Source: an uncultured Gammaproteobacteria bacterium
GTDB lineage: Bacteria > Patescibacteriota > Patescibacteriia > Magasanikbacterales > GWA2-37-8
Reading direction: 5' to 3'
Assembly: GCA_964540825.1 (NCBI GenBank)
Contig: CAZINT010000002.1
Location: 64,477-128,476 of the forward strand
DNA length: 64,000 nt
Shown: piece by piece, positions 1,787 to 58,034 of the stretch
Position numbering within the stretch: the stretch's first letter is position 1
Layout of the letters: each line of letters starts with the position of its first letter
Made by a program: the position numbers and the translations under genes
Notes under the pieces: model-generated
What the model saw: only the letters and a program-made list of their open reading frames with translations
Told to the model about the DNA's origin: nothing
Database searches by the model: none

Positions 1787-1818
1787 GAACGAACGGTGAC
1801 GCGGCCGTTCGTTCAAAA
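1787..1818. terminator. bidirectional hairpin terminator between the ABC transporter gene and the convergent GC-rich small gene
   Basis: perfect 10-bp inverted repeat GAACGAACGG (1787-1796) / CCGTTCGTTC (1805-1814) with 8-nt loop; T-rich on the minus strand side, AAAATCTT on the plus side. Confidence 0.6.
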
Positions 1819-1837
1819 TCTTAGGACTTGTCCACCC

Positions 1838-2038
1838 CTAGAGCTTGCAGGGGGGCTCGGGTGGAGGGTCGTCAGGGGGCGGGGGAGGCGGAGGGGGCGG
1901 AGCCGAGGGCGGACCGGTAGGTTCTGGGCATGGATCTGGTCTTTCGGCGCTGAACCCGGTCGGATCAAAGCACTTTGCGGGAAGGACACGAGCAGTGCCC
2001 AGCGTGGACAGCAAGCTTATGGCAAGCAATGTGCGCAT
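1838..2038 (-). CDS. small secreted proline-rich peptide (about 66 aa) encoded in a GC-rich island
   Basis: strong SD GGAGGTG 8 nt upstream of ATG at 2038; N-terminal hydrophobic signal-like segment MRTLLAISLLSTLGTARV; poly-Pro tract PPPPPPPPPDDPPPEPP; 3 Cys; local GC far above window average. Confidence 0.5.
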   Translation of the reverse strand: MRTLLAISLLSTLGTARVLPAKCFDPTGFSAERPDPCPEPTGPPSAPPPPPPPPPDDPPPEPPCKL

Positions 2039-2068
2039 TCCTGTTTCACCTCCTTTCCGGTGCCAGGA

Positions 2069-2099
2069 TAAAGGTGCGGTTTCTTCGCACACCTTTTTA
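2069..2099 (+). terminator. hairpin plus T-run (terminator-like) in the leader region of the minus-strand peptide gene; function unclear
   Basis: AGGTGCG (2072-2078) ... CGCACACCT (2086-2094) imperfect stem followed by TTTTT. Confidence 0.3.
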
Positions 2100-2189
2100 G
2101 GTTTTTGCGTCGACTAACCTAAAAGCGAAGAAATTTACCCTAGCATCGTTTCCGGTCGACGTCAAGATACTTGCCAAAATAAGCCAAAT

Positions 2190-3284
2190 TTGATAGAGTT
2201 TATCGACTATATGGCTTCTCAATATCAACAACTTAAAGAAATTTTGGCTAAAGAGCCGCGATATCGCCAAAACCAAGTTCAAAAAGCTTGGTTTGATTGG
2301 AATATTTCCGGTTACGAACAAATTACGACTTTGCCCATTGATCTGCGCGAATCCCTGAAGGGCTTTCCTTGGTTTTCGGTAAATACCCATACGCTTTTAA
2401 CCAGCAAGGAAGACAATACTCGCAAAGTACTTTTGGAGCTCCACGACAAACAATACGTAGAAATGGTTATCATGGGCCGTGAAAATATTAAAAAAGATGC
2501 GAGTGATGACGCGCCCGACCGTTACACCATCTGCGTTTCTTGCCAAGCTGGCTGCCCTATGAAGTGTGCTTTTTGCGCGACCGGTAAACAGGGTTTTAAA
2601 CGCAATCTTTCGGCTCAAGAAATTGTTGATCAGTATCGCTACGCACAGAAAATTTTGGTTGGCGAAGGTGCGCGTGTGGCCAACATTGTGTTTATGGGTC
2701 AGGGAGAACCGATGCTTAATTATGAAAATGTTAAAGAAGCGATTAAAATTTTACTTGCCAACACTGACTTAGGAGAAACAAAAATCACTGTTTCTACAGC
2801 GGGCGTTGTACCGAGTATGGAAAAATTATTAAAGGATGATTTTCCCCCCGTGCGCTGGGCAATTTCGCTCCATAGCGCCATTGAAGCGTCGCGCAAAGAA
2901 ATTATGCCTTCAAACCCTAATGGTTTCTTAGATTTTTTGGTACGCTGGTCAAACGACTATCACACTCGTTTTCCAAGCAAGTCTCATTTTATCGGACTTG
3001 AGTATATTATGCTCGGCGGGGTAAACGATGACGAAAAACATCTGCAGGCACTCATCAAACTAATTCGTCGTATGCCGCACGTTCGGGTCAATTTGATTCC
3101 GTATAATAATATTTCTGATGAAATTGTTGATAACAAATCTGTTTTTGGACGCACCCCGCACGAACAAATCGAACACTGGCACGAAGAGATTATGAAGGCT
3201 GGCTTTATTTCAACTATTCGCTACTCGCAAGGGCAAGATATTGCCGCCGCGTGCGGACAGCTCCGGAACAAAGCAGAAGTCTAA
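2190..3284 (+). CDS. rlmN: 23S rRNA (adenine2503-C2)-methyltransferase RlmN, radical SAM
   Basis: CxxxCxxC radical SAM motif region CVSCQAGCPMKCAFCATG; RlmN-like N-terminus and C-terminal catalytic Cys (AAACGQL). Confidence 0.85.
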   Translation: MIEFIDYMASQYQQLKEILAKEPRYRQNQVQKAWFDWNISGYEQITTLPIDLRESLKGFPWFSVNTHTLLTSKEDNTRKVLLELHDKQYVEMVIMGRENIKKDASDDAPDRYTICVSCQAGCPMKCAFCATGKQGFKRNLSAQEIVDQYRYAQKILVGEGARVANIVFMGQGEPMLNYENVKEAIKILLANTDLGETKITVSTAGVVPSMEKLLKDDFPPVRWAISLHSAIEASRKEIMPSNPNGFLDFLVRWSNDYHTRFPSKSHFIGLEYIMLGGVNDDEKHLQALIKLIRRMPHVRVNLIPYNNISDEIVDNKSVFGRTPHEQIEHWHEEIMKAGFISTIRYSQGQDIAAACGQLRNKAEV

Positions 3285-3290
3285 ACTATT

Positions 3291-3321
3291 AAAAAACAGG
3301 CCGAAAAAGCCTGTTTTTTAA
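3291..3321. terminator. rho-independent terminator after rlmN
   Basis: AAAAAACAGGCcgaaaaaGCCTGTTTTTT; A-run before and T-run after the stem. Confidence 0.8.
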
Positions 3322-3329
3322 TTATTTAC

Positions 3330-3358
3330 GAAGGTTTGCAAGCTCGCTGCGCCTACGC
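3330..3358 (+). promoter_or_regulatory. sigma70-like promoter for the helicase-nuclease gene
   Basis: -35 TTGCAA, 17-nt spacer, -10 TATACT; 20 nt upstream of ATG at 3378. Confidence 0.55.
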
Positions 3359-3377
3359 TATACTACCCGTTAAGAAT

Positions 3378-6314
3378 ATGAAAACACTCAACACGGCCCA
3401 GCAGGAAGCGGTTGATTACGTCGGCGGCCCGCTGCTTATCGTAGCTGGAGCAGGAACCGGTAAAACGGCGGTAATTACCCAAAAAATAGCATCGCTCATT
3501 GAGCGCAAATTAGCGTTGCCTGAACAAGTTTTAGCGCTCACCTTTACTGATAAAGCCGCTGGAGAAATGCGCGAACGCGCAGACGCGTTGATCGGATCAA
3601 CCTATTCCTCGGTAGAAGTTTCAACTTTCCACTCATTTTGTCAGCGTATTCTGGAAGACTACGCTCTGGATATCGGTCTTCCAAATCGTTTTAAGCTTCT
3701 TACAACTACCGAAACATGGCTTCTTGTCCGCGAAAAATTGGATCGTTTTAAGCTTGATTACTATCGCCCGATGGCCAACCCGGAGCGGCATATCCATGAA
3801 CTCATTAAACACTTCAATAAATGTAAAGATGAGCTCGTTAGTCCGGAAGAATATTTGGCGCACGCTGAAAGTGTCGCCATGGAAGCCGGGGATACGAACG
3901 CGATTGAAAAAAATCGTTTATCTGAAGTTGCGAACGCGTACCATGTTTACAACCGGATACTGCTTGAAAATAACGCACTTGATTTTGGTGACTTATTATT
4001 CTATGTCATTAAACTGTTTCGTGAGCGCCCACACATTCTCTCTAAAATACAAAAACATTTTAAATTTATTCTTGTCGATGAATTCCAAGACGTTAATTGG
4101 GCACAGTATGTACTCGTTCGTCTCTTAGCCAACGATCAAAGTCAATTAACCGTGGTAGGGGATGATGACCAAAGTATTTACGCTTTTCGCGGGGCTTCAG
4201 TTTCCAATATTTTGCGTTTTAAAGACGATTTCCCAAATGCCAAAAATATTATTCTAACCAGTAACTACCGCTCTCAACAAATCATTCTTGATGCGGCATA
4301 TTGTCTCATCCAGAATAATAATCCCGATCGTCTTGAAGTTAAATTACAAATTGACAAACACTTAACTGCTGAGCTGCCCGTTACTGAAAAGGGCGTGATC
4401 GAACATATCAGCGTTGCTTCCGCCCACGACGAAGTCCGGGCTGTTTTAGAAAAAATAGCTGAACTCAAAAACCTTAATTCAGAAACAAAATGGTCAGACT
4501 TTGCAGTGTTGGCACGCGCTAACGGGCACCTTGAACCTTTTGTAGATGCGCTGGGGAAAGCTGGAATACCCTACGAATTTTTGGCTTCGAGCGGCCTGTA
4601 CAGTCAAAGCAGCATTTTAGATTGTCTTAATTTCTTTAAGGCCATAGTCAACAATCAGGATTCTACAGCTATCTATCGGCTTATTACCATGCCTTTTTTG
4701 CATTTGAGTGCCCATGATTTGCAGAAATTTACGTACCACGCCAAGAAAAAAAGTATTTCGTATGCAGAGGCGCTTAAACGGGCGCGTGAATTTGGTTTGT
4801 CGGAAGAGGGTGTTCAAACTATCGAGCGTGTCAGATCGTTTCTCAACGAAGGCGCTAAAGGAATAACAGCCAAAAAACCCTCCCTTTTGTTATTAGGTTT
4901 TCTTGACGCCAGCGGTTACAAACAATTTTTGGCCGACGAAGATATGGCCGGGCGTATGTCGATTAGCCGGCAGGCACTTCTCTTGACGCAGTTTTTGGAA
5001 GAAGTAATTGCTTATGAAATAGCTCACCCTGGCGAAGCGCATGTGGCCGGCTTTTTAGAACATTTCAACCACGTGGTTGAGTCAGGAGACGAAGGAAGTC
5101 TTAAGCAAAATCTTGATGTAGCGCACGAAGCTGTGCGAGTCATGACCGTGCACGCCTCAAAGGGTCTGGAATTTAAATATGTATTTGTAGTGAACGTTGT
5201 AGAAGAACGCTTTCCTACCCGCCGACGCGGGGAGGCAATCGAGTTACCTGCCGAACTGATTAAAGAACAGCTGCCGAGCGGAGATAGTCACTATGAAGAA
5301 GAGCGGCGTCTTATGTACGTAGCGGTTACACGCGCTAAAGACCGTTTGTACTGCACAAGCGCAAGTGACTACGGCGGCGTTCGAGCAAAAAAGGTGAGCC
5401 GATTTTTACATGAAATGAAGTGTGCGAATGGCGATGCGAAACTGTTTGTTCAAGAAAAGCCTGCGTTTATCGCTCCGGAACCAGAAAAAATAACCCCTTT
5501 TATATACGATACACCGGCCAGCTTTTCATTTTCGCAGCTTAAAAGCTACGAAACATGCCCGTATCAATACAAACTAGCCCACGTTATTAAAATCCCACAG
5601 CCAGCAGGGAACGCCAGCTTTAGCTTTGGGCAAACCATGCATAGCACCCTCCAAAAATTTTACGAACGCATGCAGGAATTGAATAGTTTAAAACAAGTGT
5701 CGCTTTTTAGCCAAGAACCAGCTCAAAAATCTGGCAATGAAATTAAAGTGCCGGCGTTTGAGGAACTCTTAAAAATATATGAGCAGGTTTGGATAGAGGA
5801 TTGGTACAAAGATAAAGCGCAGCGTGAAGAATATTACGCCAAAGGCAAAGAGATTTTAAGGACTTTTTATGCGAGTCATGAAGGAAAATGGAATGTACCA
5901 ATAACGCTCGAAGGCGGATTTAAGATTAAAGTCGGCGATTATCTTATTAATGGACGTATTGATCGCATTGATCAGTTGCCTGATGGCACCCTTGAAATCA
6001 TTGACTATAAAACCGGGAAACCCAAAGAAAAAATTGTTGGTAGCGATAAAGACCAGCTGCTTTTGTACCAAATCGCTACTGAAGAACTGCCTCAGTATCG
6101 TCATTTAGGTGCAACGCAAAAATTAACCTTTTATTATCTTAATGATAATAGCCAAATTTCTTTTGTCGGTTCAGAAAAAGAGCTTGCAACACTTAAGGAA
6201 AAATTAATTGAAACAATCAATCAGATTCGTTCTGGTGACTTTACTCCTACGCCAAGTACGTTTGTTTGCGGCAGCTGCCCCTATAAAGATATTTGTGCTT
6301 ATCGTGTACTATGA
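3378..6314 (+). CDS. UvrD/PcrA-family ATP-dependent helicase fused to a C-terminal PD-(D/E)XK Cas4/AddB-type Fe-S nuclease domain
   Basis: N-terminal MKTLNTAQQEAV...GAGTGKT (Walker A), DEFQD (Walker B), VVGDDDQSIYAFRGA; C-terminal GRIDRID...EIIDYKTGK nuclease motifs plus Cys set ETCPYQY ... CGSCPYKDIC typical of Fe-S RecB-like nucleases; ATG at 3378 chosen over the upstream TTG of the ORF track. Confidence 0.85.
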   Translation: MKTLNTAQQEAVDYVGGPLLIVAGAGTGKTAVITQKIASLIERKLALPEQVLALTFTDKAAGEMRERADALIGSTYSSVEVSTFHSFCQRILEDYALDIGLPNRFKLLTTTETWLLVREKLDRFKLDYYRPMANPERHIHELIKHFNKCKDELVSPEEYLAHAESVAMEAGDTNAIEKNRLSEVANAYHVYNRILLENNALDFGDLLFYVIKLFRERPHILSKIQKHFKFILVDEFQDVNWAQYVLVRLLANDQSQLTVVGDDDQSIYAFRGASVSNILRFKDDFPNAKNIILTSNYRSQQIILDAAYCLIQNNNPDRLEVKLQIDKHLTAELPVTEKGVIEHISVASAHDEVRAVLEKIAELKNLNSETKWSDFAVLARANGHLEPFVDALGKAGIPYEFLASSGLYSQSSILDCLNFFKAIVNNQDSTAIYRLITMPFLHLSAHDLQKFTYHAKKKSISYAEALKRAREFGLSEEGVQTIERVRSFLNEGAKGITAKKPSLLLLGFLDASGYKQFLADEDMAGRMSISRQALLLTQFLEEVIAYEIAHPGEAHVAGFLEHFNHVVESGDEGSLKQNLDVAHEAVRVMTVHASKGLEFKYVFVVNVVEERFPTRRRGEAIELPAELIKEQLPSGDSHYEEERRLMYVAVTRAKDRLYCTSASDYGGVRAKKVSRFLHEMKCANGDAKLFVQEKPAFIAPEPEKITPFIYDTPASFSFSQLKSYETCPYQYKLAHVIKIPQPAGNASFSFGQTMHSTLQKFYERMQELNSLKQVSLFSQEPAQKSGNEIKVPAFEELLKIYEQVWIEDWYKDKAQREEYYAKGKEILRTFYASHEGKWNVPITLEGGFKIKVGDYLINGRIDRIDQLPDGTLEIIDYKTGKPKEKIVGSDKDQLLLYQIATEELPQYRHLGATQKLTFYYLNDNSQISFVGSEKELATLKEKLIETINQIRSGDFTPTPSTFVCGSCPYKDICAYRVL

Positions 6315-6598: not shown

Positions 6599-6618
6599 AA
6601 AACTGGTTCACACGCAGT

Positions 6619-19386: not shown

Positions 19387-19466
19387 TTGACAAAATCTGT
19401 ATTTAGTGTAAACCTATCTTTTGGACAAGTTTTGCCCAGCGTTTCAAACACTGTCTGATCAAGGAG
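19387..19466 (+). promoter_or_regulatory. promoter-like sequence and Shine-Dalgarno for the GC-rich lipoprotein gene
   Basis: -35 TTGACA at 19387-19392 (weak -10 around TAAACC), SD AAGGAG at 19461-19466 8 nt before ATG 19475. Confidence 0.4.
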
Positions 19467-19474
19467 CTATAATC

Positions 19475-19924
19475 ATGAACCGACTCGGAAACTTCCTCGC
19501 CGCAGCCGCCCTCACACTGCCCCTGTTCGGGTGCTACAACCCGGACCTGTCGTCGGGCAAGTTCCGTTGCGACAACAGCGCGCGCAGCTGCCCCGACGGG
19601 CAGGTGTGCTTGCCGTTCGCGAACCAGGGCCTGTTCTGCGTCAAGCCCCAGGAGTGCTGGCAGACGATGCTCGACTGCCAGCGCACGTGCCGCGACAGCG
19701 CCTGTTCGGCGATCTGCCGCAACATGGCGGTCAACGTGCAGAGCACGAGGATCGCCTTCAGCGTCTTCGCCGGCTGCATCGAGCAGCAGTGCCAGGGCAC
19801 CGCCCAGGGCAGCTCCAGCTGCGGGCCCGAGGCTGACGACCTGTCCTGCATCACCTGCATCCAGGACGTCTCGGCGGCCGGCGGCGCCTGCGCGGCCCAG
19901 GCCAAGACCTGCCTCACGAACTAG
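19475..19924 (+). CDS. Cys-rich secreted lipoprotein (149 aa) encoded in a GC-rich island (about 68% GC)
   Basis: signal peptide MNRLGNFLAAAALTLPLFGC with lipobox L-F-G-C; about 20 Cys in the mature part; strong GC3 codon bias unlike neighbouring genes; SD upstream. Confidence 0.7.
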   Translation: MNRLGNFLAAAALTLPLFGCYNPDLSSGKFRCDNSARSCPDGQVCLPFANQGLFCVKPQECWQTMLDCQRTCRDSACSAICRNMAVNVQSTRIAFSVFAGCIEQQCQGTAQGSSSCGPEADDLSCITCIQDVSAAGGACAAQAKTCLTN

Positions 19925-19950
19925 CCGCCCTCGCGCCGCGAGTTCGCCCC

Positions 19951-19980
19951 GGCGCACGACTCACCCTCGTGCGCCTTTAT
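19951..19980 (+). terminator. GC-rich hairpin terminator after the lipoprotein gene (first of two tandem hairpins)
   Basis: GGCGCACGA-ctcaccc-TCGTGCGCC followed by TTTAT. Confidence 0.6.
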
Positions 19981-19982
19981 CT

Positions 19983-20013
19983 AGAAGAGCTTAATGCATA
20001 GGCTCTTCTTTTA
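19983..20013 (+). terminator. second tandem terminator hairpin
   Basis: AGAAGAGC-12 nt-GCTCTTCT followed by TTTT. Confidence 0.6.
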
Positions 20014-20049
20014 GTTAAGGTCGCTTAATATTCACCTCACCCCCAAAAT

Positions 20050-21039
20050 ATGCTAGACTACTGGCATATGCAAAAATCTTCTACACCACTATTCAAACAC
20101 ATTCCTAATTTTCTTGATTACTGCGAAGTAGAAAAGGGCCTCTCCCCTACAACTACCAAAAATTATTACAACTTCCTCAAAATGTTTAAGGACTGGCTGG
20201 CTGACCAGTCCCTCACCAACCTTAAACCTCACGAACTCACGGCCGAACATATCTGGAATTACCGCCTCTACCTGTCGCGTAAAAAGGATAAAAAGACTAA
20301 TCAGCCCATCAAAAAAACCACCCAGAACTACTACCTTATCGCCTTGCGCAATCTGATGGCGTATTTTGCGACGCGGGATATCGTAGCCTTGCCAAGTGAC
20401 AAAATTCAACTCCCCAAATTAACTGAAAAAGAAAAACGAATTAAGTTCCTCAACTACGACCAGGTCAAAAAACTCATGACCATGCCGGATATGTCGACGA
20501 TCGAAGGCGTCCGAGATCGGGCAATCCTTGAGGTCCTCTTCTCTACCGGCATGCGTATCTCGGAGTTAACGTCGCTTAATATACGCCTCTTCGATATCCG
20601 CAATATTGTCGCTAAAAAAATTAAAGATTTGGAAATCAGTATTGCCGGTAAAGGCGGGTCGGTCCGCACCGTGTACTTCTCTACCGAAGCCCTTAATTGG
20701 CTCGGTAATTACCTTAAAACCCGCGTAAGCGACATGTACCCTCCCCTCTTTATTAACTACGCCAAAGCTCAAAAAGGCAGTGCTGAGCGTCGCCTGACCA
20801 CCCGCTCAATAGAGCGTGCTGTTAGGCGTTATGCTGGCATGGCCGGCCTCCCGGTTGACGCTACCCCGCATACCCTGCGCCACAGCTTCGCCACTGACCT
20901 TCTCGACCAGGGGGCGGACATGCGTTCGGTGCAGGAACTCTTGGGGCACAAAAATATTGTCACCACGCAGATTTATACGCATGTGACCAATAAAAAATTG
21001 CATGATGTACATGCAAAGTTTCATCGGGGGAATAAATAA
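20050..21039 (+). CDS. tyrosine site-specific recombinase, XerC/XerD family
   Basis: catalytic R (GMRISEL), H-x-x-R (HTLRHSFAT), H (LLGH), Y (TQIYTHV); C-terminal GADMRSVQELLGH...TTQIYTHV is typical of Xer recombinases. Confidence 0.85.
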   Translation: MLDYWHMQKSSTPLFKHIPNFLDYCEVEKGLSPTTTKNYYNFLKMFKDWLADQSLTNLKPHELTAEHIWNYRLYLSRKKDKKTNQPIKKTTQNYYLIALRNLMAYFATRDIVALPSDKIQLPKLTEKEKRIKFLNYDQVKKLMTMPDMSTIEGVRDRAILEVLFSTGMRISELTSLNIRLFDIRNIVAKKIKDLEISIAGKGGSVRTVYFSTEALNWLGNYLKTRVSDMYPPLFINYAKAQKGSAERRLTTRSIERAVRRYAGMAGLPVDATPHTLRHSFATDLLDQGADMRSVQELLGHKNIVTTQIYTHVTNKKLHDVHAKFHRGNK

Positions 21040-21044: not shown

Positions 21045-21626
21045 ATGGAAGAAACTATTGTCTACTTTGTTCGGCATGCTAAGGCGCCATTTAGCCTAAA
21101 AAACTACCACGACAGGAGTTTGTCGGTTGAAGGCGAAGCAGCCGCTAAAAATCTGGTCAAAATTTTTGATTCTGTACCTGTTGATGTATTTGTTTCAAGT
21201 TCAAGTCCCCGAGCGGTTGAAACCATAAACCCCATTGCTTTGGCTAAAGGTAAGCCTATCGAAATGCACGACGAGCTGCGCGAGCTGCTCTTGCGAGGAT
21301 CTCAAACATTTATCGAGGAAGACAAAATTGAAGCTGAGATAGAAAAAGTTTTTGCTGATGAAAATTATAAATTAGTTGGAGGTGAAAGTGCTGCAGAAGT
21401 ACTTGGGCGTGGCCTACCTATTTTTCAAAAAATACTTGAGCAGCATGCAGGTAAATCTATTATTTTAGGAACACATGGTATCATTATGACCCTGCTACTA
21501 CAGAGTTTTGACTCAAGTACAGGGTTTAATTTTTGGAAAAAGACTACGAAGCCCGATGTGTATCGGGCGGTGTTTAGCGAAGGGAGAATGAAACAATTAG
21601 ATAGGTTTTTTAAGCAAGTAATTTAA
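21045..21626 (+). CDS. histidine phosphatase family protein (phosphoglycerate mutase-like / SixA-like)
   Basis: N-terminal VYFVRHAKA (RHG-type catalytic motif variant), later GTHG. Confidence 0.7.
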   Translation: MEETIVYFVRHAKAPFSLKNYHDRSLSVEGEAAAKNLVKIFDSVPVDVFVSSSSPRAVETINPIALAKGKPIEMHDELRELLLRGSQTFIEEDKIEAEIEKVFADENYKLVGGESAAEVLGRGLPIFQKILEQHAGKSIILGTHGIIMTLLLQSFDSSTGFNFWKKTTKPDVYRAVFSEGRMKQLDRFFKQVI

Positions 21627-21639
21627 TTTAAAAAACAAA

Positions 21640-21658
21640 AACGGTAACTTTTACCGTT
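21640..21658. terminator. bidirectional rho-independent terminator
   Basis: AAAAACAAAAACGGTAActtTTACCGTTTTTG; A-run and T-run flank an 8-bp stem. Confidence 0.8.
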
Positions 21659-21745
21659 TTTGAAAATAATTGCGATTCGCATTTGGTCTTGAACGCAATA
21701 AAGTCTCGAGTTAAAGCATCTAGTCCTCTTGCTCTAATAACTTAA

Positions 21746-21833
21746 TTATTTTTTTTTCTTCCTTGGCATTTTAATTTCACCTCCTTTCTTCTTAAGAAGA
21801 AACTAATATACCATATATACTTTTGTCAATCAA
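21746..21833 (-). other. compact unit on the minus strand just downstream of the AKR gene: promoter-like sequence, 18-bp perfect palindrome, strong SD, 7-codon ORF (MPRKKKK)
   Basis: -35 TTGATT, 17-nt spacer, extended -10 TGgTATATT; palindrome TTTCTTCTTAAGAAGAAA (21785-21802); SD AGGAGGTG 8 nt before ATG 21769; ORF ATG CCA AGG AAG AAA AAA AAA TAA ends 21746; the bidirectional terminator at 21640 lies about 100 nt downstream. Confidence 0.35.
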
Positions 21834-21847
21834 TCCATAATTTTATT

Positions 21848-22675
21848 TTAACCCAACTCACTCGGATCCCAGCACGTCCTAAAATCCTCATTCAAAGCAT
21901 CTAATCTCGCCATTTCCTCACCCGTCAACTCAAAATCAAACACCGCCAAGTTCTCCCCTATCCTCTCGGGGTTCGTTGACTTCGGCAAGATAATATTCCC
22001 ATGCTGGAGGCTCCAGCGGAGCATGACTTGGGCATTCGATTTACCATGTGCCTCGGCAATAGCGGTAATTACCTTATCTTTCTGACGTTCGCCGTGCGCG
22101 AGCGGGCTGTAGGCTTCGAGGGCAATATTGTTGCTTGCACAGTACTCAAGCAATTCTTTTTGATATAAAAATGGATGAAATTCTACCTGGTTCACCATAG
22201 GCATTACCTTCGCATACGTTTTCATTTCTTCAAGGTGTTTGATGGTGTAGTTCGATACGCCAATCGCCCGGCATTTCCCTGCCTGGTAGATTTCTTCGAG
22301 TGCTCGCCAGCTCTCTTGCCGGGTGCGCGGTTCTGGCCAGTGAATAATATACAGGTCAAGATAATCGAGCCCCAGTGCTTCTTTAGATTTTTCAAATGCA
22401 TCGAAGGCTTTTTCATAGCCCTGGTCCCCATTCCAGAGTTTGGTAGTTACGAAAATTTCGCTGCGTGGTACGCCGCTTTCCTGAATAGCCTCCCCTACCT
22501 CGCGTTCATTGCCATAAATCTTGGCCGTGTCGATATGGCGATACCCGGCGGCCAGGGCGGCAAGAACAGCATTTTTGACTTTGCTGCCTGTCGCCTTCCA
22601 GGTGCCCAGGGCAACAACGGGAATTTCGACGTTATTTGCTAGTTTTTTCTGGTGGTTCATACGGTTCGCGTTCAT
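21848..22675 (-). CDS. aldo/keto reductase (2,5-diketo-D-gluconate reductase-like)
   Basis: LGTWKATGS, AGYRHIDTAKIYGNE, IIHWPEP, GVSNY motifs of the AKR superfamily. Confidence 0.9.
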   Translation of the reverse strand: MNANRMNHQKKLANNVEIPVVALGTWKATGSKVKNAVLAALAAGYRHIDTAKIYGNEREVGEAIQESGVPRSEIFVTTKLWNGDQGYEKAFDAFEKSKEALGLDYLDLYIIHWPEPRTRQESWRALEEIYQAGKCRAIGVSNYTIKHLEEMKTYAKVMPMVNQVEFHPFLYQKELLEYCASNNIALEAYSPLAHGERQKDKVITAIAEAHGKSNAQVMLRWSLQHGNIILPKSTNPERIGENLAVFDFELTGEEMARLDALNEDFRTCWDPSELG

Positions 22676-34470: not shown

Positions 34471-34479
34471 TTTCAAAAA

Positions 34480-34541
34480 CTTCGTTCACCCCATCTTCAC
34501 GACTTTGTAAGGCGTAAAAATGGGGACATGAGTGAACGAAG
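34480..34541. repeat. 62-nt nested inverted repeat at the left flank of a GC-rich island
   Basis: outer arms CTTCGTTCAC / GTGAACGAAG (10 bp), inner CCCCAT / ATGGGG. Confidence 0.5.
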
Positions 34542-34560
34542 TAGTGATAGCCCCCTTAGG

Positions 34561-34926
34561 TCACAGGCCGCCGAAGCGCCTACCAGGAGAACCGGTACGC
34601 TCCCGCTCCTCATACAGGTCCGGCACGTCGACCAGAAGACCCGCCTCCATTGAGGCACGGCCAGCCTTATCGGCCTCCTCTCTACTCATTCGCTCATCGA
34701 GCTGGGCGTGCAGGTAGTCCGCCAGCAAGGACGTGACGATCGCCGGCTGCGTAGTGAGGTCGAAGGAGCCGTCGGGCTCGAACTTGAACCCGCTGCCGAG
34801 CAGCACATCCTTCGCATTCTTGAGGTGCTGACGGGCTGCCAGCCAGCGCCTCATAGCGGCCAAAGCCAGCTCAAAAATTTTGATGGCGCTCGTGATCTCC
34901 TCGTGAGAATCGAACTTTGGACCCAT
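34561..34926 (-). CDS. hypothetical protein (121 aa) in a GC-rich island (about 60% GC)
   Basis: SD GGAGGTG 7 nt upstream of ATG 34926; promoter TTGTCA-N17-TATATA upstream; GC3-biased codons unlike neighbours; no recognisable domain. Confidence 0.55.
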   Translation of the reverse strand: MGPKFDSHEEITSAIKIFELALAAMRRWLAARQHLKNAKDVLLGSGFKFEPDGSFDLTTQPAIVTSLLADYLHAQLDERMSREEADKAGRASMEAGLLVDVPDLYEERERTGSPGRRFGGL

Positions 34927-34947
34927 ACGCGCACCTCCACGTGGCTG

Positions 34948-35002
34948 AATTGGTTTGTTTTTGGCTTATATACAGGTAAATAAGCCATTTGACAAACCAA
35001 TT
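34948..35002. promoter_or_regulatory. 55-bp nested palindrome overlapping the promoter of the 34561-34926 gene
   Basis: AATTGGTTTGT (34948-34958) / ACAAACCAATT (34992-35002) 11-bp perfect arms; inner GGCTTAT / ATAAGCC; the -35 TTGTCA and -10 TATATA for the minus-strand gene lie inside. Confidence 0.5.
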
Positions 35003-43945: not shown

Positions 43946-45033
43946 GTGTATTCGTTCTGTGCACGCGTTTTAGCTGCTTGGCCGAGCGATGTAGCTTGTG
44001 CCGGGTCAAGCAAAAGATCCGAGATAGCTGCGAGCATTGCTTCTTCGTTCGTGGGAGGCACTACGCGACCGGTAACCTTGTCGAGTACAGCTTCAGGAAC
44101 ACCACCGACTCCGCCCGCAACCACCGCGAGCCCACTGGCAGCAGCTTCCATGAAAACGGTTCCCCACCCTTCTTCGGTGGTGCTATCCGAACCTGCAAGC
44201 AACACAAACAGATCCGCAAGCTGATAGAACACCGGGAGTTCAAGCTGGTCAACTGAACCCAAAAACCTAATGACATGTTGCACGTTTGTTTTTGTTGCCA
44301 TCTCCACAATTCGGGCTTTTTCCGGCCCGTCGCCAATACAAATCCACACTAAATCCGGGAATTTTTCGAGGAGGCGCGGCAAAAGCCGGGTCAGAGTCGC
44401 ATACCCTTTACCAGGAACCATGCGACCAACACTCAGGAGTACTTTTTTACCCTGCAAAGCTAATTGAGATTTAAGTTTTTTAATTTTTTCCGAGTCTACT
44501 GTTTCAAAAAAATAATCAGCGGGAGCCGGATTAAGCACGCGAACCGGGGTTGGCAAAAAAATTGCTTTAGTAAATTTTTCAGCTAAAAACGAACTGTTAA
44601 CTACGACACTATGCGCTTCGGAAACAATTTTAATAAGATGCTTCCGTTTACGAGGGAAGGCAAGTGCATGGTCAAGATCTGTTCCATGCAGAAAAACTAT
44701 ATAGGGAACCTTGAAGAGCTTCTTAATGATTCGAGCAACATGCCCGCCCGGCAAAACTTGATGGACATAGATGGTGGCAATGGTCTCTTTTTTGACGATG
44801 CGGTAAACCTGCCACAGCATGCGTAGCCAATGGGGCCAGAGCAGCCAATACGGTTTATGACGAAAAACTTTCCAGGCATTCGCTGCATCAAATGATGCAG
44901 AACCTTTTATTTCTGGCGCATACACTATCGTTTCTTCAGCCAAAGTATGAGCGGCAAAATTGTAAACATAACTAGCAATACCACCAATTTGGGGTGGATA
45001 CTCAAGTGTAAGATGCAGTGTTTTATATATCAT
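43906..45033 (-). CDS. glycosyltransferase family 4 (GT-B fold)
   Basis: C-terminal EGWGTVFMEAAASGLAVVAGGVGGVPE motif. Confidence 0.85.
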   Translation of the reverse strand: MIYKTLHLTLEYPPQIGGIASYVYNFAAHTLAEETIVYAPEIKGSASFDAANAWKVFRHKPYWLLWPHWLRMLWQVYRIVKKETIATIYVHQVLPGGHVARIIKKLFKVPYIVFLHGTDLDHALAFPRKRKHLIKIVSEAHSVVVNSSFLAEKFTKAIFLPTPVRVLNPAPADYFFETVDSEKIKKLKSQLALQGKKVLLSVGRMVPGKGYATLTRLLPRLLEKFPDLVWICIGDGPEKARIVEMATKTNVQHVIRFLGSVDQLELPVFYQLADLFVLLAGSDSTTEEGWGTVFMEAAASGLAVVAGGVGGVPEAVLDKVTGRVVPPTNEEAMLAAISDLLLDPAQATSLGQAAKTRAQNEYTWQKQLLKFSRSL

Positions 45034-46492: not shown

Positions 46493-46536
46493 ACCAGATA
46501 CTGAGGTTTTTATCCATTGAACGAAGAAGGCACCCC

Positions 46537-46585
46537 CTTTCCCCCGTCTTAAAGTATAAAGCGGGTCGGGGGTGCCGAGATGCTC
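46537..46585. repeat. 49-nt GC-rich hairpin at the boundary of a GC-rich island
   Basis: GGCACCCCC (46537-46545) / GGGGGTGCC (46577-46585) perfect 9-bp arms, inner CCCG/CGGG. Confidence 0.5.
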
Positions 46586-46587
46586 CT

Positions 46588-46821
46588 CTAGTGCTGGAGC
46601 GGAACGAGGCGCTTGAGCTGCCCCGGGCGGCGCTTGGCGATCCGGGCCAAACGTTCCTGGCTACTCAGCCCGCGCTTGCGCTGGAGGATCGTCCGCGGCG
46701 GGTGACGCATCGTCCACTCGCCCTCACCACGGGTTCGTGCCCGCGGTTCACGCCTTAGTCGGCGTTCTTTCTTCTCCTTTCGCCGACCCTTTTCACGTCC
46801 CGGAACTTTTTCTCGTACCAT
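46588..46821 (-). CDS. very basic Arg/Lys-rich small protein (77 aa) in a GC-rich island
   Basis: SD AAGGAGG 5 nt before ATG 46821; promoter TTGACG-N17-TGgTATAGC upstream; about 40% R+K; no recognisable domain. Confidence 0.4.
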   Translation of the reverse strand: MVREKVPGREKGRRKEKKERRLRREPRARTRGEGEWTMRHPPRTILQRKRGLSSQERLARIAKRRPGQLKRLVPLQH

Positions 46822-47026
46822 TCGCTCCTCCTTATAAGAAGCCTTTGGATGCTATACCAAAATTGACCAGCTCGTCAAGCACTTGAGGTCATAAAAAATC
46901 TCATGGTACATAAGCAAAAATACCCTAAGATTAGTGGAGTACGCACTGTCGTACTCCCCAGGCTGCTTATTGAGAGCAGCGAGTCAACAAAGTCCCGGTC
47001 CGCGATCGCAGCGGACAGATCACGTA

Positions 47027-47515
47027 CTAGGGCACCGAATACGGAAACAGGTCGTTCCAAAGACCCTCTGTGCACTCGTTCGCACCTGTATACGCACGAA
47101 GCGTTATGTGGCCCTGCGCATCAACCAGCAGGCAGATCGGATACGGAACCAGCCAGCCCTTTTGTGCGAACAATTTACACCGCTCGTGATCTTTGCGCAG
47201 CTCGCAAAAGCGTGTCGAGATATCACGTCGGAACAGTTCCCATTCTTCTTGCGCTTCATTACCTGTGCCTTCTTCTTTGTGCACCGACGAGACGCTGATG
47301 AGTCCCGGGTGTTCATCGGCACGGGTTTTGAGCCAACCCATCGTCCACCAGCAAGCTTCGCAGTGGTTTCCCCCAAGAACTACAACCTCGTACTTCGTTT
47401 TTACCACAGGCTCGCTGTAGTTAAGTTGTTTCGCAACGAGCACGTGGCCCACAAACAGAATCGAAAAGAGGCCCGAGAAAAGCAAGAAAACTCTTGATTT
47501 GAGTAGCGTTGCCAT
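47027..47515 (-). CDS. secreted protein with CxxC motif (HCEACW), possible thiol-disulfide oxidoreductase-like
   Basis: signal peptide MATLLKSRVFLLFSGLFSILFVGHVLVA; VVVLGGNHCEACWW resembles a thioredoxin-fold active site; SD GGGGAAG before ATG; GC about 55%. Confidence 0.45.
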   Translation of the reverse strand: MATLLKSRVFLLFSGLFSILFVGHVLVAKQLNYSEPVVKTKYEVVVLGGNHCEACWWTMGWLKTRADEHPGLISVSSVHKEEGTGNEAQEEWELFRRDISTRFCELRKDHERCKLFAQKGWLVPYPICLLVDAQGHITLRAYTGANECTEGLWNDLFPYSVP

Positions 47516-47669: not shown

Positions 47670-47879
47670 ATGACACTCGAACAGATGTTTGTAGAGTGCT
47701 CAAACCTGGCAGAAGGTGAAACAAAGACCTTTGTCTTCCCGCGGCCTGTAGCTCGCCGAAAGGTAGCTCGTCTGGCTGAACGCGTTATGGCTGAAAAACT
47801 TCGCCAAGGCGGCTATCACTCGGTCACGATTGACGGGCTGCACGATCGGTGGACTGCGACCTGCATTCCGGTCATTTAA
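47670..47879 (+). CDS. hypothetical small protein (69 aa) in the GC-rich island
   Basis: GGGAG 7 nt before ATG; divergent from the 47027-47515 gene; no recognisable domain. Confidence 0.35.
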   Translation: MTLEQMFVECSNLAEGETKTFVFPRPVARRKVARLAERVMAEKLRQGGYHSVTIDGLHDRWTATCIPVI

Positions 47880-47920
47880 TTATTGCTTTTTACGGCAGAA
47901 CATATCCAAACAGTTCCTTC

Positions 47921-47942
47921 CAGCTCCCACAACCGGGAGCTG
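47921..47942 (+). terminator. GC-rich hairpin after the 69-aa ORF
   Basis: CAGCTCCC-acaacc-GGGAGCTG followed by TTCTATTT. Confidence 0.4.
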
Positions 47943-49172: not shown

Positions 49173-49207
49173 AACAATGCGTTACAGCTGGTAGTTTTAA
49201 TAAGGGG

Positions 49208-50038
49208 TTATTTTTTCTTAGCCTTCTTAGCTTTTGGTTTTTTTTCAGTTTCATCATCACTTGCTTCATCTGCTGGCATTTCTTCCAGTGGTTCGCTAGC
49301 TGCTTCTTCGCTGGCAGCTTCCACACGTGCTGGAGCAAAATCGGCACTAGCGTTTACTTCATCTAAAATAATGTTGAAATGATTAATCAAAATCTGAGTA
49401 CTCTGAAGCAAAGCATCCTTTGGAGCGATGGTTCCGTTGGTTTCAATGTTGATGATCAGGCGTTCAAAGTTTGTGATGTCACCAACACGGGTGTATTCAA
49501 CTTTATACCCAACGTCTTTAACCGGAGTATAGACCGAGTCCATCACGATAGTACCGAGGTCATAGTTCTGTTTATCTTTTTCTTCAACCGGTTTATAACC
49601 GCGTCCTTTGCCAACCGTAACGTCGATGTCGAGCGTCTTGTTGCTGGTTAAATGAGCAATTACTAATTCCGGATTAACGATTTCAACATTAGAGTTAGCT
49701 TGAAAATCAGCGGCCGTAACCACTCCCGGGCCTTTTTTAACCAGATTCAAAACAACCGGTTCGTCGCTAAAAATTTTAACGGCCAGCTGTTTGAGGTTAA
49801 GCATGAGCTCCATGGCGTCTTCTTTGACACCTTCTACCGTACTAAACTCGTGCGAAACACCTTTTACTTTAAAGTGTTCAACAGCCGAGCCTGGCAGCGA
49901 AGACAAAAGCACACGACGGAGCGCGTTTCCGAGCGTCGTTCCATACCCGTGATAGCACGGTGTAATAACAACCGAACCGGAGTTCGGTGTCTGCCCCTCT
50001 TGGAATTCCACTTTGGAAGGAAGAAGAAAATTCTCCAT
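49208..50038 (-). CDS. rpoA: DNA-directed RNA polymerase alpha subunit, N-terminal domain only (no recognisable alpha-CTD)
   Basis: alpha-NTD motifs (TLGNALRRVLLSSLPGSAV); ends after about 235 aa in an acidic/lysine tail (ASEEAASEPLEEMPADEASDDETEKKPKAKKAKKK) instead of the HhH alpha-CTD. Confidence 0.85.
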   Translation of the reverse strand: MENFLLPSKVEFQEGQTPNSGSVVITPCYHGYGTTLGNALRRVLLSSLPGSAVEHFKVKGVSHEFSTVEGVKEDAMELMLNLKQLAVKIFSDEPVVLNLVKKGPGVVTAADFQANSNVEIVNPELVIAHLTSNKTLDIDVTVGKGRGYKPVEEKDKQNYDLGTIVMDSVYTPVKDVGYKVEYTRVGDITNFERLIINIETNGTIAPKDALLQSTQILINHFNIILDEVNASADFAPARVEAASEEAASEPLEEMPADEASDDETEKKPKAKKAKKK

Positions 50039-54671: not shown

Positions 54672-54679
54672 ACAATATT

Positions 54680-55786: not shown

Positions 55787-55855
55787 AGGTCTTATTTTGA
55801 ATTTTTTTAGTATGCGTGCTAAACTACGGGGTATATTTAACTTTTAATTTTTTAT

Positions 55856-56146: not shown

Positions 56147-56165
56147 AAGAAACAGCCTTCTACTT

Positions 56166-56196
56166 AAAACCCCGCGCCCTAAGGCGCGGGGTTTAA
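56166..56196. terminator. bidirectional rho-independent terminator
   Basis: AAAACCCCGCGCCctaaGGCGCGGGGTTT. Confidence 0.85.
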
Positions 56197-56212
56197 GTTT
56201 CAGCGTGATAGC

Positions 56213-56542
56213 TTAGCTGTTGCGGCGAGCCTGCATGCAGTCTCGGCAATATACTGGCTTGTCACCGGTTGGCTGGAAAGGAAGCTGAGTGATTTGAGCA
56301 CCGCAGCTAGCACAGTTCAAGTTGACACTGTACATTTGGCGAGGAGCGCGAGGACCGCGACTCATACCGCCACCCATTCCTCCAGCGCCACCAGCACGAT
56401 TTTGGCGATACGTGCGGTTACAGTCAGAGCAGTAAACCGGACGATCTCCAGAAGGTTGAAAAGGCAACTGTGAAACGTGGGCACCGCATTGTGAGCAGGT
56501 AAGGTCCACGTCAAACATTTGACGATCAGTACCAAAGGCCAT
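56213..56542 (-). CDS. tandem zinc-ribbon protein (two CxxC...PF-P...C-x2-C modules joined by a Gly-rich linker), YacG-like modules
   Basis: internal duplication TCSQCGAHVSQLPFQPSGDRPVYCSDC / NCASCGAQITQLPFQPTGDKPVYCRDC; linker RAGGAGGMGGGMSRGPR; GC about 55%. Confidence 0.65.
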   Translation of the reverse strand: MAFGTDRQMFDVDLTCSQCGAHVSQLPFQPSGDRPVYCSDCNRTYRQNRAGGAGGMGGGMSRGPRAPRQMYSVNLNCASCGAQITQLPFQPTGDKPVYCRDCMQARRNS

Positions 56543-56562
56543 AGAGATATTCTAAGGGAATT

Positions 56563-56620
56563 GTTCCCAAAATGTTTTTTGAGAGCGTATGTATAAATTG
56601 TTCGACCTCTTTTTGGGAAC
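56563..56620. repeat. long-range inverted repeat in the 5' leader of the zinc-ribbon gene
   Basis: GTTCCCAAAA (56563-56572) / TTTTGGGAAC (56611-56620), 10-bp arms with a 38-nt spacer. Confidence 0.4.
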
Positions 56621-56703
56621 CTTAGGTTACTATTGTTGCCCAAATTATTGACTATAGAGTAGCACAAAAACCTGGCTCCGTCAAGACAAGCTAAAAACGC
56701 ATC

Positions 56704-57198
56704 TTAGCGCTGCACATTCACAGCGGCCGCTCCCCCGCCGTCACAGGTAATATGGTTAAGTCCGAGCGTTTGAGGATTGACCAGCTTGTACCCATAACCG
56801 CCCACAGTATAGGTAACGGTACCAACTTTTATCTTGTGCGCTTTGCTATCACGGTTGTCGAGCATGAAAACAGTCCCCCGTTTAAGGGTAAGCGAACCCG
56901 GGTTGCCAGCGCAATTTACGAATTGAAAATAAGCACCTCGTGAACGATAGTCATTAAGCGCCTTTTCATAGTCAGTAGATGCCGACGTTGGCGGGCGAAC
57001 CGCAGCGCCTGCGGGAGTCTCTGCAGGAATTATTTCTTCCGGGGCCGTTGGCGTTTGAGGAACCGGGCGCTGAATTCCATTTAAGCTAGCAACAGAGCCT
57101 TCGGTTGGAACATACACCCGAATCCAAACAAAATACCCAATAATAAAAAGTGCAACCGCGCCAATTCCCGCTAAAATATAAGTGGTATTTTTTTTCAT
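56704..57198 (-). CDS. hypothetical membrane-anchored protein (N-terminal TM, Pro/Thr-rich linker, C-terminal globular domain)
   Basis: ORF with N-terminal hydrophobic helix ILAGIGAVALFIIGYFVWI. Confidence 0.5.
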   Translation of the reverse strand: MKKNTTYILAGIGAVALFIIGYFVWIRVYVPTEGSVASLNGIQRPVPQTPTAPEEIIPAETPAGAAVRPPTSASTDYEKALNDYRSRGAYFQFVNCAGNPGSLTLKRGTVFMLDNRDSKAHKIKVGTVTYTVGGYGYKLVNPQTLGLNHITCDGGGAAAVNVQR

Positions 57199-57201
57199 AT
57201 A

Positions 57202-57555
57202 TTAATTGGCTTTCTTAAATTTAACACTAAAAATTGGATCGTAGGTATTGTGGTATTCATCTTGAACTTCCACCTGCTCGCCTTTCATCATAAGTGATAA
57301 AGCCGCGTCGCTGAGAAGTACAAGGTCGGATTCCAAGTCTGTCTTATACGCGTCAAGCTGATTAAACTCGCTGGTAAATTGTGCTTTAGTATTTTCTTCA
57401 ATCTGTTTTTTCTTTTCCCGAAGCGCTTTCATTTTTTCCATTACTTCTTTATATTCAAGCGATGTTTCGAGCGCATCTTTATAAACGCTTTTTAAATCTT
57501 TTTGCTTTTTTCTATTTTCCTGCATGCGGGAAAAAATTTCTTGAACGTCCACCAT
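57202..57555 (-). CDS. hypothetical coiled-coil protein (117 aa)
   Basis: K/E-rich heptad-like sequence; 3-nt gap to the downstream gene. Confidence 0.45.
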   Translation of the reverse strand: MVDVQEIFSRMQENRKKQKDLKSVYKDALETSLEYKEVMEKMKALREKKKQIEENTKAQFTSEFNQLDAYKTDLESDLVLLSDAALSLMMKGEQVEVQDEYHNTYDPIFSVKFKKAN

Positions 57556-57708
57556 AGAAAAGTGATTTTAAATCTTAATGGCATCAGTATACCATGGAAG
57601 TGCTCGCATGCTCAACAAAAAATTCCTAGTTATGCACCTAAAAACCCTTGACAAAACGCTTAACCAGCGTAGCGTATGTGCCAGTTCTTTTTGGGAGGAA
57701 CTTGTATA

Positions 57709-57993
57709 ATGTCAGGTTTTACAAAAGCACTACGCGCACTTACCAATCCTTGCATGCGTCCCGGTCAGGAGCCCGGCAAGCTCTGTACGGGACTTCGGAT
57801 TGTTCCGGGTGATCAAGTCGTCCGAAAAGAAGACCCGCCAAAAGTGGCCGCACAACGTCTGCAAGTCGTGGAAGGGGCAGACCACGACATGTTCGCAGTC
57901 TGCGACGAGTGCGGCGATTGCAGGAGAATCGGGAGTGTTTCCCAAATCCTGGGACTGGCACCTCCCAAGGCCCTCACCACCTGTGAGGAATAA
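57709..57993 (+). CDS. hypothetical Cys-containing small protein (94 aa) in a GC-rich island
   Basis: GGGAGG 9 nt upstream of ATG 57709; 6 Cys including CDECGDC; GC-rich codons; followed by a GC hairpin. Confidence 0.45.
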   Translation: MSGFTKALRALTNPCMRPGQEPGKLCTGLRIVPGDQVVRKEDPPKVAAQRLQVVEGADHDMFAVCDECGDCRRIGSVSQILGLAPPKALTTCEE

Positions 57994-58007
57994 CCACCCT
58001 TACCAAA

Positions 58008-58034
58008 GCGGGCGCAGCGAAGACGCTGCCCCGC
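58008..58034 (+). terminator. GC-rich hairpin after the 94-aa ORF
   Basis: GCGGGCGCAGCG-aaga-CGCTGCCCCGC followed by TTGTTCAT. Confidence 0.45.

Follow-up and report, generated by a model that had tools for sequence, protein, structure and literature searches.

Horizontally acquired genomic islets of bacteria share an atypical composition and codon usage, a patchy presence among relatives and housekeeping neighbours, and they often encode surface-exposed products of uncharacterised function. ORFans and genomic islands are usually AT-rich. Here, we describe seven GC-rich small-gene units that resemble such islets in a 64,000-nucleotide stretch of DNA (hereafter the window; contig CAZINT010000002.1 of assembly GCA_964540825.1, positions 64,477 to 128,476), where they occupy intergenic slots between housekeeping genes of a Magasanikbacteria-like Patescibacterium that has a tiny genome and is probably symbiotic; the nearest species representatives at the rpsI locus are Patescibacteria, several of them Candidatus Magasanikbacteria, with an S9 identity of 66-76%. 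Unlike described islets, these units have the reversed polarity, being GC-rich in a lower-GC genome, they lack tRNA, integrase and insertion sequence (IS) landmarks as well as a detectable donor, and several of them are old syntenic orthologues with their own translation-initiation signals and with an undecayed GC content at third codon positions (GC3). They are compositional islets with two unusual features, namely genes led by a Shine-Dalgarno (SD) sequence in an SD-less genome and a GC3 that does not decay. In SD-poor bacteria such as Bacteroidota, most genes lack an SD while a few special genes keep one. The genome studied here is similar in its overall lack of SDs (53 of 54 backbone genes) and in having a small SD-strong minority; however, this minority consists of GC-rich, lineage-restricted small accessory genes and not of ribosomal or autoregulated genes.

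The window has a mean GC content of 44.5%, with a standard deviation of 0.056 among 200-bp windows, and a scan at this width returned four strong islands at 1751-2050 (peak 0.66), 19451-20050 (0.72), 34501-34950 (0.65) and 46501-46850 (0.68), the peaks lying 3.7-4.9 standard deviations above the window mean. In extent, the strong islands cover 1.79-2.09, 19.47-20.01, 34.48-35.0 and 46.53-46.88 kb at 61-72% GC against 44.5% in the backbone, and three mild islands cover 47.03-47.52, 47.67-47.94 and 57.65-58.04 kb at 52-58% GC. Each island contains one small open reading frame (ORF); three such units share the slot between the flippase gene and rpsI. An earlier note on this DNA had listed five or more GC-rich islands, of which the four strong and three mild ones stand, while the segment at 56.2-56.6 kb, where GC reaches 0.53, proved to be a native zinc-ribbon gene (I5). 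The same note had put the GC content of both the 46.5-47.9 kb and the 57.7-58.0 kb segments at roughly 60-68%. The former is uneven: I4a (46588-46821) is at 65% GC and the remainder at 52-54%, with I4b (47027-47515) at 52% and I4c (47670-47879) at 53%. The latter is a mild island with a peak of only 0.58 and a gene, I6, of 55% GC. Against a backbone GC3 of 0.42 +/- 0.04, the island genes have values of 0.95 (I2), 0.75 (I3), 0.68 (I4a), 0.63 (I1), 0.59 (I4b) and 0.53 (I4c and I6). Synonymous-codon z-scores, scored against backbone preferences, are -7.4 for I3, -5.2 for I2, -4.2 for I6, -3.2 for I1, -2.6 for I4a and -2.2 for I4b; neither I4c (-0.7, native-like) nor I5 (-0.1, native) deviates from the backbone. 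Two further GC bumps of 0.55-0.59, one at 43951-44250 within a glycosyltransferase gene and one at 26701-27000 at the 3' end of the gene at 26657-27886, contain no separate ORF with a coding signature.

The island genes also stand apart in their translation start signals. With an SD defined as a match of at least 4 nt to AGGAGGTG at positions -18 to -4, none was present in 53 of the 54 backbone genes, whereas six of the seven true island genes have one (six of the eight ORFs in the segments noted earlier), so that the strong SDs claimed for island genes in a backbone mostly without them form an even sharper division than had been stated (6/7 versus 1/54). The match is 8 nt long in I1 (AGGAGGTG), 7 nt in I3 (GGAGGTG), 6 nt in I4a (AGGAGG), 5 nt in I2 and I6 (AAGGAG and GGAGG, respectively) and 4 nt in I4c (GGAG), and there is none in I4b or in the native I5. 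The same division recurs in three other genomes, where 14 of 16 GC-rich small genes have an SD compared to none of 36 backbone genes (0/17 and 0/19). Native genes (e.g. upstream of 2211, 8119, 16790 and 48022) have G-poor leaders, almost never an SD, and a T before the ATG; this T at -1 is found in 45 of the 54 backbone genes and is missing from most island genes. The lack of an SD in 53 of 54 genes, together with the T at -1 and the G-poor leaders, points to an SD-independent initiation mode for native genes of this lineage. About half of the 16S genes of Parcubacteria are reported to lack the anti-SD motif (Tsurumaki et al., PMC9297842).

Promoter signals are less uniform. A strict sigma-70 consensus scan returned a site for I4a and none for I1, I2 and I3, and the TTGACA box 5' of I2 is invariant in three species; the suggestion that each island has its own -35/-10 boxes is supported only in part. 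A stable hairpin lies 3' of every island gene, mostly with a T-rich tail. The hairpins that had been reported at the island borders are ordinary, terminator-type structures whose sequences differ between islands, and BLAST comparisons among six island segments for a shared border motif or repeat gave chance-level matches only.

What separates these units from recently imported DNA is their distribution among relatives, which we reached by exact-protein look-ups and which comprise a sister genome (GCA_964510495.1), a second genome (GCA_964634875.1) and a population in JGI metagenomes 33000453xx (the JGI species). The sister has the same backbone GC and is ~78-90% identical at the nucleotide level where alignable, and synonymous sites of the backbone are saturated between species (pS 0.69-0.81; XerD 0.55). 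Nevertheless, four of the seven island genes (I1, I2, I4a and I4c) have syntenic orthologues in the sister, with the same high GC, and I2 is present in the JGI species as well. The earlier note had named such an outcome, shared genes of equal GC in relatives with the same backbone GC, as a refutation of its reading, and it applies to these four of the seven genes. Because of this synteny, these four genes are not recent arrivals as judged from gene order, which runs counter to the proposal of a repeated acquisition of foreign high-GC cassettes: most genes are old and no donor was found. The comparison for insertions relative to syntenic loci, which the earlier note had called for, gave a divided picture, with I3 and I4b absent from the sister and I1, I2, I4a and I4c in place. 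The I1 orthologue (L088, 3436-3672; 70% GC) occupies the same place, with compensatory changes in its terminator, and its product retains the signal peptide as well as DPCPEP and the PPPC-x-L end. The I4a orthologue (74 aa, 62% GC, same position) is 39% identical in amino acid sequence around a core of RREP+AR ... SQRKRGL..ER. Judged by the 33-47% amino acid identity of the I1, I2 and I4a orthologue pairs, these three genes are fast-evolving; I4c, with 91% identity and a dN/dS of 0.10, is conserved.

I2 is the most informative unit. It spans 19387..20009 on the forward strand with an ORF at 19475-19924 (149 aa, 68% GC, GC3 0.95), a TTGACA box at 19387-19392, an SD (AAGGAG) at 19461-19466 and terminator hairpins at 19951-19975 and 19983-20009. 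The product is a predicted lipoprotein with 17 Cys residues and a lipobox, ...LTLPLFG/C, that matches [LVI][ASTVI][GAS]C loosely, with F at -2 in place of A/S/T/V/I; in the orthologues the lipoboxes read LALVAG/C and LLGVSG/C, and the Cys is invariant. The orthologues in the sister (P0024, 147 aa, GC 65%, GC3 0.86) and in the JGI species (159 aa, GC 69%, GC3 0.91) are both directly upstream of the same XerC/D gene. They share 33-42% amino acid identity and 16 invariant Cys columns, mostly with TGC codons, and have diverged at pN 0.39-0.46 and pS 0.48-0.50; the dN/dS is about 0.7-0.9. The flanks are conserved in all three species, including the TTGACA box, TCAAGGAG, the AAGGAG and both 3' hairpins with compensatory substitutions, and the GC-rich part of I2 starts exactly at the ATG, behind this conserved AT-rich promoter/SD region. 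The AF2 model of I2 (pLDDT 49) is unusable. The I2 region is open in all six frames, and the public gene call at this island is an antisense ORF of 184 aa (19403-19957, reverse strand), so that the sense lipoprotein is absent from the protein collection, while the sister orthologue has been called on the correct strand. The wrong-strand call at island 2 suggests that GC-rich genes of this genome are prone to wrong-strand annotation. In its pattern of divergence, I2 recalls conotoxin-type evolution, in which hypervariable disulfide-rich secreted peptides keep a conserved Cys framework and conserved Cys codons: the Cys columns are fixed, the spacers have diverged, and the signal/lipobox region and flanks are conserved. 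Unlike these peptides, I2 is a bacterial lipoprotein with a single copy per genome, and the likeness is one of sequence alone.

The GC3 of I2 is higher than passive decay allows. In a two-state neutral decay model, in which GC3 relaxes from 1.0 towards the backbone value of 0.42, the predicted present value is 0.49-0.73, whereas the three orthologues have 0.95, 0.86 and 0.91. Where the encoded amino acid is conserved among the three species, the third base is identical at 20 of 32 codons, and A or T occurs in only 8 columns. From the discrepancy between prediction and observation we infer that the high GC3 of I2 is held by an active force; taking 0.42 as the neutral equilibrium, a GC3 near 0.9 would need a scaled bias of ~2.5. 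Candidate causes that were rejected are a conserved antisense ORF (only 83 aa in the sister), a conserved RNA structure (folding z of the coding sequence -2.85 here versus -0.52 in the sister) and recent exchange or introgression of the I2-XerD locus (XerD pS 0.55, I2 amino acid identity 33-42%). What remains as a candidate is either GC-biased gene conversion, at a locus that recombines and diversifies, or selection on G/C-ending codons. GC-biased gene conversion has been documented in bacteria (Lassalle et al. 2015, PMC4450053), and what is described there resembles the present case in a locally raised GC3 in recombining genes, to which the tracts of single nucleotide polymorphisms (SNPs) described below correspond; it differs in that the effect here is very large (0.9 versus 0.42 within a few hundred bases), and gene conversion is a candidate cause only. 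The adjoining XerC/D gene has a local GC peak of 0.60 at 20751-20950 (0.66 in the JGI species, L100 3701-3800) and a GC3 of 0.56, above the backbone; its pS of 0.55 is below that of neighbouring genes.

The other units vary in their products and signals. I1 (1787..2054, reverse strand; ORF 2038..1838, 66 aa, GC 66%, GC3 0.63) encodes a signal peptide followed by a Pro-rich body, MRTLLAISLLSTLGTARV...DPCPEP...PPPPPPPPP...PPCKL, with its SD at 2054..2047 and a terminator hairpin at 1814..1787. I3 (34479..35002, reverse strand; ORF 34926..34561, 121 aa, GC 61%, GC3 0.75) lacks a signal peptide and is predicted to be cytoplasmic. It has an SD at 34938..34932 and a long 3' hairpin at ~34542..34479, and periodicity, the SD and the ATG are the only signs that it is coding. 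Upstream of I3, a perfect 11-bp inverted repeat (34948-34958 / 34992-35002; AATTGGTTTGT / ACAAACCAATT) flanks TTGTCA-17-TATATA and could be an operator. I4a (46529..46878, reverse strand; ORF 46821..46588, 77 aa, GC 65%, GC3 0.68) encodes a small basic, Arg/Lys-rich protein and has a promoter-like site at 46878..46849, an SD at 46833..46828 and a GC-rich hairpin at ~46576..46529. I4b (47027..47515, reverse strand; 162 aa, GC 52%, GC3 0.59, no SD) encodes an N-terminal transmembrane helix and a CEAC motif that follows the strand formed by residues 41-46. It has no Pfam or NCBIfam match; its AF2 model (pLDDT 59) has a Trx-like beta-alpha-beta-alpha-alpha-beta-beta-alpha topology, and nearly all top Foldseek matches, at a marginal E of ~0.01, are thioredoxins or membrane-anchored thiol-disulfide oxidoreductases, suggesting that I4b is probably a membrane-anchored thioredoxin-fold thiol-disulfide oxidoreductase. 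I4c (47670..47942, forward strand; ORF 47670-47879, 69 aa, GC 53%, GC3 0.53; terminator 47921-47942) has no signal peptide and is predicted to be cytoplasmic. I6 (57648..58036, forward strand; ORF 57709-57993, 94 aa, GC 55%, GC3 0.53) has 7 Cys, or 8 in a 105-aa reading from 57676, and no signal peptide. It is preceded by a TTGACA box at 57648-57653 and an SD at 57694-57698, has a hairpin at ~58006-58036 in common with the convergent Dus gene, and is known elsewhere solely as an identical copy in another sample. Export or membrane signals are thus found in three of the seven products (the I1 signal peptide, the I2 lipobox and the I4b transmembrane anchor). By contrast, I5 (56213..56542, reverse strand; 109 aa, GC3 0.47, no SD) is not an island since its GC3 and codon usage are native and its GC is due to codons for Gly, Arg, Ala and Cys; it encodes a tandem CxxC-x17-CxxC zinc ribbon whose two repeats match TIGR04272 (5.7e-29, 99.6 bits, cut-off 36) and PF23477 (1.3e-28, 98.9 bits, cut-off 27).

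The slots themselves are filled differently in related species, which indicates gain and loss of genes. Between the ClpB and PBP genes, the sister has a gap of 128 bp, compared to 670 bp in the window, so that only the window has I3, while I4b is found in a strain of 98% identity (L083). In the sister, the slot between the flippase gene and rpsI contains the I4a orthologue, a gene for an 88-aa Cys-rich lipoprotein, the I4c orthologue, a 62-aa GC-rich gene, a NUDIX gene and an 80-aa gene; the slot between the RlmN and helicase genes contains a gene for a 104-aa membrane protein (GC3 0.87) and that between the Dus and G6PD genes a gene for a 116-aa lipoprotein, both without counterpart in the window. 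In GCA_964634875.1 and the JGI species, an unrelated 136-141-aa secreted protein is encoded on the opposite strand between the ABC and RlmN genes, behind a GGAGGT SD. Most of these extra GC-rich genes of relatives encode lipoproteins or secreted proteins. Recombination leaves traces in the population, too. I4c is 100% identical in amino acid sequence between the window and L083 despite 11-12 clustered synonymous SNPs, 11 of which fall in the 47.7-47.8 kb bin and one more at 47810, and 30 of the 63 differences between L083 and the window in 3.1 kb lie within 200 bp of the rpoA region (49200-49400). The clustered SNPs in I4c and the rpoA region look like imported recombination tracts, with recombination active in the population.

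Further observations concern the surroundings of these slots. Contig 2 of the sister (L090, 10000-13400) has a ~3-kb block of 62-70% GC, GC3 0.81-0.94, with three lipoprotein genes, beyond the right end of the region corresponding to the window; two of the lipoproteins are paralogous, and one of these matches DUF3455. At L097 4110-5936 and L099 3280-5106, the JGI species has a gene for a 608-aa AAA_15/AAA_23/AAA_21 ATPase between the His_Phos and aldo-keto-reductase genes, where the window has only a 220-bp gap (21626-21848); this gene may be a defence-type insertion. An N run between duplicated 55-bp copies at L088 ~3880-3980, just upstream of RlmN, is a scaffolding artefact. More distant Patescibacteria have small ORFs near rpsI with a GC3 0.25-0.4 above that of their own backbone (L022 8196-8726 and 11598-11858; L023 11658-12269 and 14974-15258; L010 5155-5511; L007 10793-10981), the pairs in L022 and L023 being homologous to each other, and so the phenomenon may be wider than this genus. 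Homologues of the island genes themselves were not found by tblastn in the more distant CPR loci L003-L082, and a GC-rich stretch 3' of rpsI in L003 fails to align with I4a. A target of a diversity-generating retroelement would have a matching template repeat, and nothing resembling one for I2 came up when the island segments were compared by BLAST and for repeats, in a window that was not screened for reverse transcriptase. A metagenome scan with degenerate recombinase patterns, which were poor, returned distant integrases only, and a literature search for similar units in Patescibacteria found nothing specific.

Taken together, we favour a model in which the islands would be autonomous one-gene expression units, each with a promoter-like region, a canonical SD, a small ORF and an intrinsic-terminator hairpin, and in which their products would be lineage-restricted small proteins, almost all of them ORFans. 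The units would have entered the clade by horizontal transfer from high-GC, SD-using bacteria, after which they would have turned over slot by slot, likely by recombination following DNA uptake, as the units carry no recombinase gene, IS element or att site. We suggest that their products might be interaction proteins of an epibiont, secreted or located at the cell surface and subject to diversifying pressure, with which the rapid divergence of I2 on a fixed Cys scaffold would fit, and I4b, as modelled, could plausibly take part in the disulfide chemistry of the Cys-rich members outside the cytoplasm. An old acquisition of this kind, followed by long retention under an active GC-maintaining force, is the explanation to which we give about even odds. 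The idea of a dedicated class of accessory small genes in the earlier note is borne out, in that the genes are foreign by GC, GC3, codon usage, SD and start context and sit in slots that gain and lose genes. There are also hints of outside relatives. At its mature N-terminus, I2 has a stretch of 33-36 residues (GCYNP..SG..RCD....CPDGQ.C) that is similar to the N-terminal part of a 241-aa protein encoded on 65%-GC contigs (E 2e-4, a marginal match only), and one island lipoprotein of the sister genome matches DUF3455 (PF11937) at 1.8e-7.

Several findings weigh against this explanation. No donor was found, and I2, I3 and I4b are without homologue outside the small clade among about 15 billion proteins: a word-indexed search of 5.8 billion clusters returned I3 and I4b only as themselves and nothing for I2, and an exhaustive HMMER search of 1.84 billion representatives with I2 gave the sister orthologue, the marginal N-terminal match and one spurious repeat protein. 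The island proteins matched nothing in Pfam, NCBIfam, PHROGs and PADLOC, where I5 alone was matched, or in PDB sequence searches, and nothing was found in plasmids and phages by tblastn of I2 or in IMG/VR scans for I2, I3 and I4b. The islands show no insertion scars, direct repeats or mobility genes, and the recombinase adjoining I2 (20050-21039) is of the housekeeping XerC/D type. Moreover, the persistence of GC3 argues against passive foreign DNA and means that a second, additional force must be assumed, and a simple foreign insertion does not explain why GC rises exactly at the ATG of I2 behind a conserved AT-rich promoter/SD region. I3 and I6 carry no comparative evidence of coding, the functions proposed for the units rest on sequence features only, with both AF2 models (I2 and I4b) of low confidence, and some Parcubacteria lack the anti-SD (PMC9297842) while the 16S gene of this genome lies outside the window.

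A bolder reading of the same data, which we put forward as a possibility less probable than not, is that the GC-rich, SD-led signature is an actively maintained second expression dialect, used by a Patescibacterium that otherwise lacks SDs for those surface or secreted proteins that diversify rapidly. Such a dialect would be kept either through GC-biased gene conversion at hotspots of recombination or because selection favours an SD-dependent, separately controllable translation. In a more extreme variant, the signals may be tuned to a high-GC, SD-using partner cell that expresses the genes.

The main rival to an old acquisition dispenses with transfer altogether and supposes that native, fast-evolving or newborn small genes had their GC raised in place by gene conversion or selection. 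We consider it unlikely, yet it accounts naturally for ORFans that have no donor, for a GC3 of 0.86-0.95 held in three lineages, and for a GC rise that begins at the ATG between conserved AT-rich promoter/SD flanks. The recombination tracts in the population, one of which lies inside I4c, fit such a process as well, and GC-rich DNA has few stop codons, which favours the birth of ORFs. What makes us prefer acquisition is how much evolution in place has to achieve: it must lift GC3 from 0.42 to 0.95 and the GC content of second codon positions (GC2) from 0.37 to 0.55, and in addition gain canonical SDs in a genome that avoids them. Unrelated genes in one slot across sublineages, together with empty slots, look like insertion and loss, the DUF3455 match places one island gene of the sister in a Pfam family outside CPR, and the 17-Cys framework of I2 is elaborate for a newly arisen gene.

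Recent, repeated acquisition from a high-GC host of the organism, with a composition that has not yet drifted to that of the recipient, seems improbable to us. GC3 values of up to 0.95, the foreign SD and codon usage, and the presence of I3 and I4b in one sister species and not in the other are all as expected from it, and the matches of the I2 N-terminus on 65%-GC contigs and of one sister gene to DUF3455, weak in the case of I2, could be read as traces of such a source. However, four of the seven genes are syntenic in a sister whose backbone synonymous sites are saturated relative to the window, and I2 is found in three species; the 33-47% identity of the I1, I2 and I4a pairs amounts to long residence, and none of about 15 billion proteins is a donor homologue. 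The speculation that a basibiont was the donor is accordingly unsupported, and we return to an old acquisition as the preferred explanation.

The usual cause of GC-rich spots in AT-leaning genomes is RNA genes, and the segments might therefore be structured non-coding RNAs or other non-coding elements whose ORFs are artefacts of stop-poor DNA. The six open frames at island 2 and the antisense public call there could be taken in this sense, as could the finding that the I2 and I3 transcripts, terminators included, fold better than shuffled controls (z ~-3.7). This cause does not apply, as no tRNA gene (ARAGORN) or Rfam family was found in the window or in the loci of 11 and 6 relatives, respectively, and the sister does not share the excess folding seen in the coding sequence of I2. 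Moreover, the codon periodicity is pronounced (GC3 far above GC2), the spacing of SD and ATG is correct, signal peptides and lipoboxes are present among the products, I2 has 16 invariant Cys columns, I4c has a dN/dS of 0.10, and protein sequence is conserved where the DNA is unalignable. We therefore regard a non-coding origin as very improbable.

Integron gene cassettes resemble the units in being small, mostly single-ORF elements with a 3' hairpin, and one unit here adjoins a tyrosine recombinase, which raises integron-like or other site-specific capture through the recombinase downstream of island 2. That recombinase follows I2 in all three species, and the GC-rich block of I2 spans exactly from ATG to hairpin behind what would be a resident promoter. 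However, the recombinase matches XerC and XerD over its full length (2.6e-66 and 1.9e-65), whereas integron-integrase models cover only its C-terminal catalytic part; there is no array and no shared attC-like motif or repeat at the island borders, and the islands are dispersed, with their own SDs and promoter-like regions, and the others have no recombinase nearby in their Pfam neighbourhoods. Capture of this kind has as little to recommend it as a non-coding origin. Finally, least probable of all is that high-GC reads were joined into a CPR contig as metagenome assembly chimeras, for although the source is a metagenome-assembled genome and a short contig (L086) ends inside island 2, the same junctions are reproduced at 98-100% identity in independent assemblies from other samples (island 2 in L085, islands 4b and 4c in L083 at 98% and island 6 in L084 at 100%), orthologous GC-rich genes occupy the same slots in assemblies of three other species, and the island borders fall at start codons and terminators.

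The lifestyle generally assumed for Patescibacteria is one of attachment to other cells, for which few of the responsible proteins have been identified, and their accessory genomes consist predominantly of ORFans. The units described here yield a sequence rule, combining an outlying GC3, a canonical SD and a small exported product, that picks candidate interaction genes and that holds in three related genomes as well. The coexistence of SD-less native and SD-led accessory genes is relevant to translation initiation by reduced ribosomes, and also to gene calling, since at island 2 the antisense frame was chosen in the public annotation. Finally, the non-decaying GC3 of I2 provides a natural test case in which the passive decay of transferred DNA can be set against gene conversion or selection in bacteria.

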